Shown piece by piece: positions 2,053-4,719 of a stretch of DNA of 4,719 nt; the first letter of the stretch is position 1, and each line of letters starts with the position of its first letter. The DNA is from a virus (Duplodnaviria > Heunggongvirae > Uroviricota > Caudoviricetes). The notes below the pieces were generated by a model. It did no database searches. It was given only the letters and a program-made list of their open reading frames with translations, and had not been told where the DNA came from. The DNA lies in the IMG/VR virus record IMGVR_UViG_2778261151_000015, one strand, 5' to 3'. The position numbers and the translations under genes are program-made.

Positions 2053-2175
2053 TTATCCCCATCGACAAATCGAGTACACAACAAACGCTACTGCGAATAC
2101 CATCCCCAGAGTTACGATTGCATCAGGCCAGCTCATTGATTCACCTCCTGCGGCGTCCTGGTATTCGATTTTCAT
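2053..2175 (-). CDS. Small hydrophobic membrane peptide (40 aa from ATG 2175; alternative 27-aa start at ATG 2136)
   Basis: Hand-translated: MKIEYQDAAGGESMSWPDAIVTLGMVFAVAFVVYSICRWG. ATG at 2175-2173 overlaps the TGA of the clamp-like gene (ATGA). The internal ATG at 2136 has a near-consensus SD (AGGAGGT, 6-nt spacer). One predicted TM helix (AIVTLGMVFAVAFVVYSI). Confidence 0.45.
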   Translation of the reverse strand: MKIEYQDAAGGESMSWPDAIVTLGMVFAVAFVVYSICRWG

Positions 2176-2741
2176 TCCGGATGCTCCTGAGCCACGTTGA
2201 AATCGCCATGATCACGACAAGGCATCACAACAAATTCAGGATTGCCATACATTGAGTTGATGATGGAATCAAACTGAATTCTGACCGCTTGCCCGTCACC
2301 GGAGGGACGTAACTGGACGGGAATAAATTTACGCTCACGACCAAACATCTTCTCTGGATAACTCAGGTAACCCGCCTGGAGCACCGGGTGAGTACAGCGG
2401 TCAAACTTTTTCGGAATGATGCGATCCAAATCCGGAAAACAACCGTCCACCAGTTTAATGCCGGTAATGGACAGTCGTCGCTGAAACTGGTCGCGATGAA
2501 CAGCGATCGGCTCTTTACTAAAAATCAGCTCTGTCGTTTCGGCTTTGGCCGGGACGCCCCCTTCGAACTGGACAATGATGTTTTTCTTCGTCCGGATGCC
2601 GTGAGCCATGCGCAGTGCCACGGAACCATTGGTTGCCTCAATATGTTTCGGCGTGATGTGAAGACCGTTCAGGTAATAACGAACGTCGTTTTTAGCAGCG
2701 CACACCAGAGCGGCGCGAATAAGTTTTGACTGGATGATCAT
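2172..2741 (-). CDS. DnaN-like protein: truncated DNA polymerase III beta sliding-clamp homologue (189 aa)
   Basis: Motifs match E. coli DnaN domains II-III as I recall them: DVRYYLNGLHI (DnaN DVRYYLNGMLF), KLVDGCFPDLDRIIPKK (DnaN KLVDGRFPDYRRVLPKN), C-terminal EFVVMPCR (DnaN AYVVMPMRL). About half the length of DnaN (366 aa). ATG at 2741-2739 overlaps the stop of the upstream gene; SD GGGAGG 7 nt upstream. Confidence 0.75.
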   Translation of the reverse strand: MIIQSKLIRAALVCAAKNDVRYYLNGLHITPKHIEATNGSVALRMAHGIRTKKNIIVQFEGGVPAKAETTELIFSKEPIAVHRDQFQRRLSITGIKLVDGCFPDLDRIIPKKFDRCTHPVLQAGYLSYPEKMFGRERKFIPVQLRPSGDGQAVRIQFDSIINSMYGNPEFVVMPCRDHGDFNVAQEHPE

Positions 2742-3487
2742 GCTTTATCCTCCCATCCGATCACCTGGAAAAGCCCCATCTTCGGGTGATACCAGCGTGT
2801 GCCGCGTGGTTCAGCCTCTGACATCATTTGGTGGAACGCCGCCATAAATGGCTCAAGCTCGACGATAGCCCTGCGAGACAACAGACCGTCCGGAGTCATG
2901 AATTCGTGGGTGTCTGTAGGAATTTGATATGCGTTCACCAGATTCCGACACTTGGCGTCACTCATTCCACTTTTGGCTACCACCTGGCGGTAACCGACAT
3001 ATCCGGCGCGCATTGTGCCGCGTTTGATGTTCTCCACAGCTTTGGTGACCGTTTCGATCTTCTTTTCAACATGACTCAGGCGCTTTTGCTGGCGAACGGC
3101 ATCGGCGGCCATTGCAGCGATCATCTCCATTTCCGTCAGCGGCGCGTGAGTTCGGAAATAGCTGTTAACCAGTTCGCGCTGAACCTGCCAGGCCAGATCG
3201 TCGGTGAAGGATTTCACCAACATCAAATAACCGGATTCGACCAGTACAATTCCTGCTGCTGCAAATTTTGAGAAAGTACCGTCAGGGAGGTGTCGACGAA
3301 TTTCGTCGGAACCTAATTCGAAGTAGTCTTCCCCTTCAATAAGACGAGACTTGTTTTCGCGGAAATTGCGTCCCGCTGTTCCGTCCGGGCGTTGGTGCAC
3401 TTCATCAATCATCGCCAGCGTCACCACGCGCTGACCGCGATATTCGATTACCGGAAACTGTTTGTTGTTGATGGTTACAGTATTCAT
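2738..3487 (-). CDS. ORF6N-domain phage protein (putative antirepressor/regulatory protein), 249 aa from ATG 3487
   Basis: N-terminus MNTVTINNKQFPVIEYRGQRVVTLAMIDEVHQRPDGTAGRNFRENKSRLIEGEDYFEL fits the ORF6N pattern (…IEY.GQ.V.T…NF..NK.RFIEG.HYF.L). Track ORF starts at a GTG (3562) that would overlap the upstream gene by 32 nt; the ATG at 3487 has a GGAG SD and is preferred. C-terminal ~150 aa has no family I recognise. Confidence 0.7.
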   Translation of the reverse strand: MNTVTINNKQFPVIEYRGQRVVTLAMIDEVHQRPDGTAGRNFRENKSRLIEGEDYFELGSDEIRRHLPDGTFSKFAAAGIVLVESGYLMLVKSFTDDLAWQVQRELVNSYFRTHAPLTEMEMIAAMAADAVRQQKRLSHVEKKIETVTKAVENIKRGTMRAGYVGYRQVVAKSGMSDAKCRNLVNAYQIPTDTHEFMTPDGLLSRRAIVELEPFMAAFHQMMSEAEPRGTRWYHPKMGLFQVIGWEDKA

Positions 3488-3530: not shown

Positions 3531-4361
3531 TTACTTAACCTGAATAAATGGTGTGTTGGCACCGCTGGTCATGTACTGCGGCAGTGTGCCGTTCCATTTA
3601 TTGATGGCTTCCAGCTCCATAACACCGGGGTTCTGGCGCAGAGCTTCACCGCGTAAACGAATTGCATCGGCTTCGGCCTGGGCTTTTGTGCGAATCGCAT
3701 CAGCCTGTCCGGCAGCTTCTGCACGCAGCATGTTGGCTTCTGCTTCGCGTTGTTTAACTTCCTGCTCGCGTTGCAGTGTTTTCTGGTTTGCCGTGACTTT
3801 GGCGTTAATGCTGTCGATAACGGTTGGTGGGTACTCTGGCTTACCCACATATGAGAGGCTCATTACCTGAATACCGATGGGTGTCATTTCTTCCTGGATG
3901 TCTTTTAGAGCGGCATCCAGTAATTCAGATTTACCGCCGTCAATAAATTTGTCGGTGGTCATTTTGCTGGCCAGCCGATTGAGTGCGTCGGCGATCTTCT
4001 GGCGCAGGTCTGTATCGGTAATGTCATCCACGCCTTTGCGGTAGGTCTGAAATACCGTGGTAACTTTCGATGGATCAACCTTATAGGCCACGCCGATGTG
4101 ATAACCGATGGTTGTGCCGTCGCTCATCTGGAAGCTGAATGGATCATCGTAGATCTTCATTTGTTTGAAGGTCGGGAAAATGTAAACTTCAGTATTCCAG
4201 CCAGTCCAGTAGCGACCAACACCGACCACCTCACCGACACCTTTGTCGTCGCCCAGTTTGTTGACTTTGATACCCACATTACCTGGTTCAACGCGATCGC
4301 AACCTACAAGTCCGAAGACAGCCAGACTGACCGCGAAAACAAGCGCAATTGTTTTTTTCAT
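3531..4361 (-). CDS. SPFH (band 7 / prohibitin / flotillin-like) domain lipoprotein
   Basis: 276-aa ORF. N-terminal lipoprotein signal with lipobox (MKKTIALVFAVSLAVFGLVG|C). Central SPFH-like region followed by a Glu/Ala-rich coiled-coil (REQEVKQREAEANMLRAEAAGQADAIRTKAQAEADAIRLRGEA) typical of HflK/HflC/flotillin-type proteins. ATG at 4361-4359 overlaps the TGA of the upstream small ORF (ATGA). Confidence 0.8.
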   Translation of the reverse strand: MKKTIALVFAVSLAVFGLVGCDRVEPGNVGIKVNKLGDDKGVGEVVGVGRYWTGWNTEVYIFPTFKQMKIYDDPFSFQMSDGTTIGYHIGVAYKVDPSKVTTVFQTYRKGVDDITDTDLRQKIADALNRLASKMTTDKFIDGGKSELLDAALKDIQEEMTPIGIQVMSLSYVGKPEYPPTVIDSINAKVTANQKTLQREQEVKQREAEANMLRAEAAGQADAIRTKAQAEADAIRLRGEALRQNPGVMELEAINKWNGTLPQYMTSGANTPFIQVK

Positions 4362-4546
4362 TTTTCCCTCCCGGGGAAAGAAAGACCCTTATAAATGGCA
4401 TAAATGCAGGGCGGGGTCAGACACGCCAGAGCAAAGCCAGAAATCACTGCTACCGTATCCTTCATTGATATGAGGGCCGGAACGATTAATCCGTAAATAC
4501 ATGCGATAATTGCCAGTGATATAACTATTCTGAAATAAATGTTCAT
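4358..4546 (-). CDS. Small two-TM membrane protein (62 aa), partner of the SPFH lipoprotein
   Basis: Two hydrophobic helices (FRIVISLAIIACIYGLIVPALIS and VAVISGFALACLTPPCIYAIY) separated by a short polar loop. SD AGGAGG just upstream of the ATG at 4546-4544. Stop overlaps the SPFH start. Confidence 0.6.
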   Translation of the reverse strand: MNIYFRIVISLAIIACIYGLIVPALISMKDTVAVISGFALACLTPPCIYAIYKGLSFPGREK

Positions 4547-4572: not shown

Positions 4573-4595
4573 GGTAATGACTCCAACTTACTGAT
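4573..4595. repeat. IS1 terminal inverted repeat (IRR)
   Basis: GGTAATGACTCCAACTTACTGAT matches the ~23-bp IS1 right inverted repeat with one substitution relative to the K-12 copy as recalled. Confidence 0.8.
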
Positions 4596-4719
4596 AGTGT
4601 TTTATGTTCAGATAATGCCCGATGACCTTGTCATGCAGCTCCACCGATTTTGAGAACGACAGTGACTTCCGTCCCAGCCTTGCCAGATGTTGTCTCAGAT
4701 TCAGATTATGTCGCTCAAT
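4588..4719 (-). CDS. insB: IS1 transposase InsB, C-terminal fragment (partial; 5' end outside window)
   Basis: Minus-strand translation from the window edge gives [43 protein letters not shown], matching the known InsB C-terminus. Stop TAA at 4590-4588, immediately inside the IRR. Confidence 0.8.

Follow-up and report, generated by a model that had tools for sequence, protein, structure and literature searches.

The window analysed here, a stretch of 4,719 nucleotides from a Caudoviricetes record of IMG/VR (IMGVR_UViG_2778261151_000015), encodes a 189-residue protein, here called the mini-clamp, that derives from the beta sliding clamp of bacteria (DnaN) and is compact and probably not toroidal. 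In a program-made list of open reading frames (ORFs), the coding sequence of 189 codons plus stop occupies positions 2172..2741 on the minus strand, which is exactly where a sequence-only reading of this DNA, giving no strand, had placed a 189-residue DnaN homologue; the product is RefSeq WP_000586688.1, named "beta clamp domain-containing protein". That the protein is about half the size of the clamp (189 versus 366 residues), and not a canonical three-domain protomer, was supported. The start codon, ATG at 2739-2741, shares the tetranucleotide ATGA with the TGA stop codon of the upstream ORF6N gene and has the Shine-Dalgarno sequence GGGAGGA a few bases 5′ of it, and the stop codon (TGA, 2172-2174) overlaps the ATG of the next ORF.

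When taken as a single sequence, the mini-clamp showed a weak similarity to DnaN that fell under the curated cut-offs. It was found that Pfam PF02767 matched with E=0.007 and 17 bits (gathering score 27), that PF00712 and PF02768 gave no match in the Pfam scan, and that TIGR00663 matched with E=1e-4 and 21.2 bits (cut-off 137.65), with residues 6-115 on profile positions 136-254. A phmmer search of the PDB aligned the protein with residues 136-255 of E. coli beta at an E value of about 1e-3. The mini-clamp family used as a profile (the 30-sequence alignment A1) matched E. coli beta with E=3e-19. The AlphaFold2 (AF2) monomer model computed from alignment A1 was compact, with a mean predicted local distance difference test score (pLDDT) of 92 and a predicted template modelling score (pTM) of 0.87, every top match of this model in a Foldseek search of the PDB was a beta clamp, and about 160 residues superposed on beta at 2.8 Å. 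The predicted structure thus has the DNA-clamp fold, and, as judged from profiles and model, the similarity to DnaN is decisive once the relatives of the mini-clamp are included. The motifs picked out by the sequence-only reading proved to be real, with DVRYYLNG corresponding to beta 150-157, DGxFPD..R..P to beta 238-248, and the C-terminal VVMPCR to beta 360-365 (VVMPMR); the profile and structure checks proposed with it returned significant DnaN profile similarity and a clamp fold, rather than chance matches or a foreign fold.

Alignments of hidden Markov models (HMMs) place residues 1-116 (2394..2741, minus strand) as the equivalent of domain II of beta (about 131-253), with residues 7-116 on beta 136-253 in the family profile alignment. 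Residues 117-176 (2214..2393, minus strand), which end in VVMPCR, make up a beta-alpha-beta-beta-beta unit that corresponds to about residues 312-365 of beta according to profile scores and secondary structure. The C-terminal tail, residues 177-189 (2175..2213, minus strand), is without a beta counterpart in alignment A1; the pLDDT is 56-80 over the last blocks, and the tail is absent from distant family members. Within the domain II equivalent, a 9-residue loop (residues 60-68, with a conserved P64) replaces the second channel-lining helix, and DSSP assignment of the AF2 model gave no helix between strands 55-59 and 69-73.

The domains of the clamp are internal duplications, and because of this the 60 structured residues of the C-terminal unit can be aligned with either half of domain III. 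A contiguous HMM alignment suggested an origin in the first half, but this was ruled out by scoring the C-terminal profile separately, which gave 27.8 bits (E=7e-11) against beta 308-366 and 4.0 bits against beta 248-312. The family consensus "eigfNaeY...vivMPmR" likewise parallels "EIGFNVSY...YVVMPMR" of beta. On the alignments and the model, the mini-clamp is a beta protomer that has lost domain I, half of domain III (the N-terminal one), and one channel helix. It retains three of the six beta-alpha-beta-beta-beta units, which are spatially contiguous: the two that form domain II, and the C-terminal one of domain III. The earlier assignment to domains II and III holds for domain II, less one channel helix, and fails for domain III, of which only the C-terminal half is present.

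The dimer interface of beta is formed by I78 and F106 of domain I with I272 and L273 of the first half of domain III (PMC11139829), and all four residues fall in parts that are missing from the mini-clamp, which has no such head-to-tail interface. The suggestion that the protein might form a heterodimer with host DnaN is therefore unlikely to be right, because both halves of the interface are missing. By its scores under the curated cut-offs, and in having neither three equal domains (about 366 residues) nor the dimer interface, the mini-clamp falls outside DnaN itself.

The pocket of beta that receives clamp-binding motifs (CBMs) is the hub for bacterial polymerases, the clamp loader, Hda, and mismatch-repair proteins, and is an antibiotic target. 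The pocket given in a recent review, counted here as 17 beta residues, is listed as R152, L155, T172, G174, H175, R176, L177, P242, R246, V247, N320, Y323, V344, V360, M362, P363, M364, and R365 (PMC11139829), and all 17 map to the arc that is retained in the mini-clamp. Conservation was scored in a 164-sequence family alignment, and all of the segments named here are on the minus strand. The segment R21-Y-Y-L24 (2670..2681) is equivalent to beta R152/L155 of subsite I (R 99% and L 96% in the family), and T37-N-G39-S40-V-A42 (2616..2633) is equivalent to T172, G174, H175, R176, and L177 of subsite I and the bridge (T 94%, G 100%, and H 91%, with H175 being Ser in the window copy). P103-D-L-D-R107-I108 (2418..2435) represents P242, R246, and V247 of subsite I (P 99%, R/K 91%). 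In subsite II, Q122-A-G-Y125 (2367..2378) represents N320/Y323 by alignment with IGFNVSY (N 70%, with Q 13%, and Y 90%), and V171-V-M173-P174-C175-R176 (2214..2231) covers V360-R365 of subsites I and II (M 97%, P 93%, R 85%).

Nine of the 14 most conserved columns of the alignment are pocket residues (G174 100%, P242 99%, R152 99%, M362 97%, L155 96%, T172 94%, P363 93%, H175 91%, and Y323 90%), with a hypergeometric p=6e-8, although this conservation is inflated by ascertainment for the reasons given below. The window protein is identical to the E. coli beta pocket at 11 of 17 positions and the family consensus at 14 of 17. As far as alignment can tell, the residues of both subsites are present, and the hydrophobic cleft that the sequence-only reading had singled out for checking is retained as the most conserved part of the family.

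The mini-clamp is a basic protein with an isoelectric point (pI) of 9.23, and the family median is 8.5, with 59% of members above 8; DnaN itself has a pI of 5.25, and its equivalent segment one of 5.57. Lys or Arg is conserved in the family at positions equivalent to beta E140, H148, M204, and N329, sites that fall within the two helices still present and the loop that has taken the place of the third, and these elements face DNA in beta. A high pI has been proposed as a mark of loader-independent, non-ring clamp homologues that bind DNA directly (Kazlauskas and Venclovas, PMC3201878). The median ratio of nonsynonymous to synonymous substitution rates (dN/dS) was 0.08 (917 pairs, 57 distinct close alleles). 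Therefore, the gene is functional and not decaying, and it is under strong purifying selection.

The interpretation that we favor, tentatively and with a somewhat less than even prospect of its being right, is that the mini-clamp is a pocket module that acts as a DNA-associated docking site for CBM-bearing host proteins on phage DNA. The leftward operon would supply the protein early once the prophage is induced, and its retained pocket would bind a QLxLF-type clamp-binding peptide in a protein of replication or repair, of either host or phage origin, without a clamp loader or ring closure. Host proteins with a CBM, Pol III for instance, would in this way be retained on phage DNA, by a docking logic analogous to that of the non-ring herpesvirus factors UL42 and UL44. 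This version is preferred because the parts that face DNA in beta have gained basic residues, and because Serratia phage Eta, the one complete genome inspected, carries the mini-clamp together with its own helicase and primase genes and no annotated DNA polymerase.

A number of points weigh against docking. The window copy is substituted at three pocket positions (H175 to S40, N320 to Q122, and M364 to C175). The pocket residues are also the best conserved within DnaN itself and the family was gathered by profiles that reward pocket motifs, so that the conservation figure given above is too high. Motif scans for Q-phi-x-[LM]-[FL] and for a six-residue form, covering all ORFs of Eta, of the VL46 locus of E. 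coli (in which the left ~12.5 kb of the prophage and its flanking genes were scanned), and of the E. coli VR50 locus, yielded no CBM-bearing phage partner: the strict pattern, applied to the Eta ORFs only, found nothing, and the loose pattern gave only scattered, non-conserved matches at chance level. Lambdoid phages already recruit host Pol III via O/P-type replication proteins. The monomer model may leave room for an oligomer, either a C-shaped dimer or a ring, and charge is the sole pointer to DNA binding. Furthermore, the gene was found in only 60 of 5426 complete E. coli genomes, related prophages carry the same neighboring genes without it, and it is dispensable at the population level.

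The main rival explanation, although rather unlikely, is that the mini-clamp is a takeover inhibitor, a soluble pocket module that acts as a sponge for host clamp-binding motifs. Its targets would be the clamp-loader delta subunit, Pol III alpha and epsilon, Hda, MutS/MutL, and Pol II, IV, and V, and the effect in lytic growth would be inhibition of host replication, regulatory inactivation of DnaA, mismatch repair, or translesion synthesis. The same pocket conservation and the loss of the ring-forming parts speak for such a sponge as well, and the gene lies among early-left accessory genes, which are often aimed at host functions. Kil is encoded nearby in related Klebsiella prophage loci and in phage Eta, and phages do target the clamp, as exemplified by Twort gp168 (PDB 7evp, found among the structure matches; PMC11139829). 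However, the basic pI and the basic residues gained on the DNA-facing elements would be superfluous in a pure decoy, stoichiometric titration would require high expression, and the family also occurs in phages like Eta, which seem to rely on the polymerase of the host and would be hurt by a general CBM sponge.

The prospects are poorer for a processivity clamp of another stoichiometry, which we regard as improbable. The mini-clamp would form either a C-shaped dimer through its orphan half-domains, with two-fold pairing and six units as in UL44, or a ring of four protomers and 12 units. One protomer has three of the 12 units of the beta dimer ring, and an arrangement of 4 × 3 = 12 would be geometrically possible. 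The half-domain exposes a surface that is buried in beta, the superposition of about 160 residues on beta at 2.8 Å implies that the curvature is kept, and changes in clamp stoichiometry have a precedent in the two-domain clamps PCNA and gp45 (PMC3201878). Against these points stand a compact AF2 monomer (pTM 0.87) that has lost one of three channel helices, a basic net charge unlike that of ring clamps, and the finding that no clamp-loader gene was seen near any copy inspected.

It is very unlikely that the mini-clamp is a bait for defense, namely a decoy displayed by the lysogen to clamp-targeting proteins of superinfecting phages that triggers an effector, for example one of the neighboring small or membrane proteins. 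The position of the gene near the int/xis end, among variable accessory genes and close to an SPFH lipoprotein and small membrane proteins, would suit a bait. But none of the six window proteins scanned, including the mini-clamp and the ORF6N and SPFH proteins, matched PADLOC-DB 2.0.0, and no promoter-like site for lysogenic expression was found. In addition, the family is common in phages that have no integrase in the stretches inspected (Skatevirus, Dhillonvirus, and Eta), where a bait would be unexpected, and its neighbors are not conserved across the family. Slightly more remote still is a poison subunit that would enter a heterodimer with host DnaN and open or block the host ring: the protein is a DnaN homologue of the same host lineage type, but domain I (I78, F106) and the N-terminal unit of domain III (I272, L273, E298-E304) are both absent. 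The idea that the gene is a functionless remnant of a captured dnaN, or, separately, that it encodes a RusA-like resolvase, has in its favor the truncated architecture and the "RusA-like" label of PHROG and many GenBank records, yet it is effectively refuted already by the dN/dS of 0.08, by clusters that number in the thousands and have diverged at constant length, and by fold matches that are all clamps; moreover, the ORF is intact behind a strong Shine-Dalgarno sequence, and neither Pfam nor NCBIfam returned a RusA match.

In comparison to DnaN of E. coli (PDB 2POL/1MMI), the mini-clamp has 189 instead of 366 residues, three of six structural units, and a pI of 9.2 instead of 5.25; it is without domain I, the N-terminal half of domain III, the head-to-tail interface, and one channel helix, and it scores far under the TIGR00663 and PF02767 thresholds. 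PCNA and T4 gp45 are trimeric rings of two full domains, with both ring interfaces, an acidic charge, and dependence on a loader, whereas the mini-clamp has 1.5 domains and is without the interface elements. UL42, a monomer, and UL44, a C-shaped dimer, are non-ring factors of herpesviruses, each of which works with its cognate viral polymerase, whereas DNA binding by the mini-clamp is only presumed, and no polymerase is annotated in the left ~12.5 kb of its prophage; the resemblance to UL42/UL44-type factors is thus a working analogy. The Twort inhibitor gp168 and MuC of phage Mu, which uses beta for late transcription, illustrate that the clamp network is a target of phages (PDB 7evp; PMC12867686), and they differ from the mini-clamp in that they bind the host clamp, whereas the mini-clamp imitates the binding site of the clamp.

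Short phage homologues of PolIII-beta were noted in a 2011 survey by Kazlauskas and Venclovas, which took them to span the second and third domains and passed them over as acquired genes that are probably dispensable (NAR 2011, PMC3201878). The mini-clamp appears to be of the same kind as these proteins (PHROG 3007), in view of its length class and its habitat in phages and prophages, and it differs from the 2011 description in that the third domain is only half present and in that conservation points to the binding pocket. A 2016 survey by the same authors raised the purpose of stand-alone PolIII-beta homologues in viruses without a polymerase as an open question (PMC4889955), on which the present findings would bear. 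Therefore, the existence of half-size phage DnaN homologues is already known. The 2011 and 2016 computational surveys were the only studies found in full-text literature searches, which yielded no functional study of short phage beta-clamp homologues, and no description of the 1.5-domain, pocket-centered, basic architecture and its implication was found in the literature searched.

It is possible, though on balance doubtful, that phages of many lineages carry the smallest arc of beta that still forms the CBM pocket, in a basic form that is free of ring and loader and plugs into the host beta-clamp interactome. Such a module could trap Pol III or enzymes of repair on the DNA of the phage, perhaps in the form of a C-shaped dimer in which the orphan half-domains pair about a two-fold axis, or it could soak up CBMs and thereby shut down host replication control and mismatch repair. 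If true, this would be an undescribed and widespread strategy of host takeover, and the module would offer a minimal scaffold of natural origin on which the pocket could be studied or drugged; a large phage family that keeps only the pocket would imply an unstudied exploitation of the beta-clamp hub. If the mini-clamp were instead an ordinary accessory factor of small effect, the value of the finding would be mainly a correct annotation, as many records call such proteins RusA-like resolvase or DNA polymerase. In either case, the mini-clamp is a well-defined variant of a central replication protein, the gene for which is rare in E. coli, whereas the family is very large in phages.

The size of the family was evaluated by an exhaustive profile search, which returned 12,777 clusters (50% identity) at E<=1e-3 and at least 2,771 at E<=1e-10. 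The best 150 cluster representatives were all 87-214 residues long, with a median of 187, and members are typically about 170-215 residues, a scaffold of 19-21 kDa. Many phage proteins of 163-250 residues in BFVD have the same fold, at template modelling (TM) scores of 0.7-0.8. The mini-clamp shares with this short family the profile match, the length, the start in domain II, the MPxR end, and the phage or prophage habitat. Relatives were found in 217 phage records and in 327 IMG/VR stretches, and those at ~30% identity include Skatevirus, Dhillonvirus, Serratia phage Eta, and phages of Vibrio, Burkholderia, and Ralstonia. Two longer members that had been considered as natural fusions were rejected as such, P0015 (282 residues) being an Ea22-like recombinant and P0035 (255 residues) the result of a mis-called start.

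PHROG 3007 matched the mini-clamp with E=5.9e-65 (residues 1-179 on profile positions 3-188 of 190), and its label is RusA-like Holliday junction resolvase. This assignment was rejected, as no RusA match was obtained in Pfam or NCBIfam and all fold matches were clamps, and the label is an annotation error. The "RusA-like" mislabel also occurs in many GenBank and RefSeq phage records; GenBank names for members are DNA polymerase III beta subunit, DNA polymerase, RusA-like resolvase, and hypothetical protein. Salmonella phage Fels-1 (NC_010391.1, 2529-2849) contains a match to residues 80-187 only, at 70% identity, which is split over two annotated hypothetical proteins and is probably a truncated or disrupted copy. 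A clamp-like domain was also observed in BFVD A0A6J7W9M3_1 (Foldseek E=1.6e-5, TM 0.52), a 1394-residue protein of an uncultured phage that is annotated as a "large polyvalent protein-associated domain" protein, so that clamp-pocket modules may occur in polyvalent proteins.

The prophage setting recognized in the sequence-only reading was confirmed. Leftward transcribed genes for a tyrosine integrase (75-1361) and a DUF1233 excisionase (1395-1649) are present, followed along the window by a 44-residue ORF, the gene of a DUF4222 protein, a 40-residue ORF, the mini-clamp gene, and the ORF6N gene, all leftward, so that the integrase, excisionase, and DUF4222 genes are downstream of the mini-clamp. 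The same arrangement, at 99.7% identity, adjoins mlrA (yehV) in E. coli VL46. The minus strand between 1300 and 4719 showed no sigma-70-like promoter, which is consistent with co-transcription from a distal early-left promoter, and repressor and Cro-like genes are present farther along the VL46 prophage locus, where no DNA polymerase gene is annotated in the left ~12.5 kb of prophage.

The ORF6N gene (2738..3487, minus strand) is translationally coupled to the mini-clamp gene and encodes an ORF6N (KilA-N-like) N-terminal domain (Pfam E=2.5e-15) and a conserved C-terminal domain of about 134 residues. The RefSeq start is the ATG at 3487 (249 residues), and the 274-residue ORF that begins with GTG is probably too long. 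In 79 IMG/VR loci with close relatives of the mini-clamp, a homologous upstream gene was present in 70, of which 32 share only residues 116-249. The 134 C-terminal residues are conserved at ~80% identity behind differing N-terminal domains (PHROG 6610), with a mosaic joint near residue 116. The ORF6N protein ends in RW[YF]HPKMGLFQ[AV]IGW, and KMGLF resembles QLGLF of Pol II. This was rejected as evidence for a CBM and is a weak lead: the KMGLF tail is equally conserved in Enterobacter prophages without the mini-clamp, is PEFGGF in a sister subfamily, and looks more like a folded hairpin than a linear motif.

The 40-residue ORF downstream (2053..2175, minus strand) is a remnant at a deletion junction. 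Its first seven codons (MKIEYQD) are those of a conserved gene of 73-77 residues that in most related prophages comes after the mini-clamp gene, and the hydrophobic remainder is unrelated sequence. In E. coli VR50, an intact 77-residue gene follows the mini-clamp gene (locus L011, 4088-4321, minus strand), and the window is without ~1.14 kb by comparison. The micropeptide is therefore a junction artifact, because the deletion of ~1.14 kb fuses the seven codons to unrelated sequence. Of the ORFs downstream in the 79 loci, 62 group with the intact gene of the MKIEYQD type, 59 of which are 73-77 residues long, and 12 have the 40-residue form. The 73-77-residue protein (MKIEYQD...SG[FV]F...RAY) had no Pfam match. 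In Enterobacter prophages the ORF6N gene is directly followed by the 74-residue version of this gene, with no mini-clamp, and conversely the mini-clamp occurs without an adjacent ORF6N gene in Klebsiella and Limnobaculum prophages and in lytic phages. The proposal of a functional unit with the ORF6N protein and the micropeptide is thus weak, as the latter is a deletion remnant and the linkage to ORF6N is not obligatory.

Farther upstream are genes for an SPFH/Band 7 lipoprotein (3531-4361, minus strand; Pfam E=6e-31, with weak similarity to HflK/HflC) and, overlapping it upstream, a 62-residue two-helix membrane protein (PHROG 1130; 4358-4546, minus strand). These two may form a prophage-borne pair of an SPFH protein and a small membrane partner, and neither matches PADLOC. 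An end of IS1 at 4573-4719, which matches thousands of places annotated "IS1 family transposase" and is absent at the VL46 site, sits just upstream, in the direction of transcription, of the 62-residue membrane protein gene. With the leftward genes on one side of it and the distal early promoter on the other, the IS1 end may be polar on the whole operon, the mini-clamp gene included. In the VL46 copy of the prophage, a "ParE family toxin-like protein" gene (locus L001, 12996-13214) and several small genes of unknown function were observed farther along the leftward operon, beyond the part covered by the window.

In unrelated phages, the mini-clamp gene was found beside genes whose products bind or modify DNA. 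The neighbor is a ParB-HTH gene in Skatevirus Pu29 and Serratia phage Eta and an Nmad5 gene in Dhillonvirus EP23, whereas Dam methylase and SSB genes are beside it in Vibrio phage PVP-XSN. The coordinates of these neighbors in the unrelated phages are 4792-5601 in locus L003, 5143-5964 in L004, 5080-5844 in L013, and 6625-7784 in L005.

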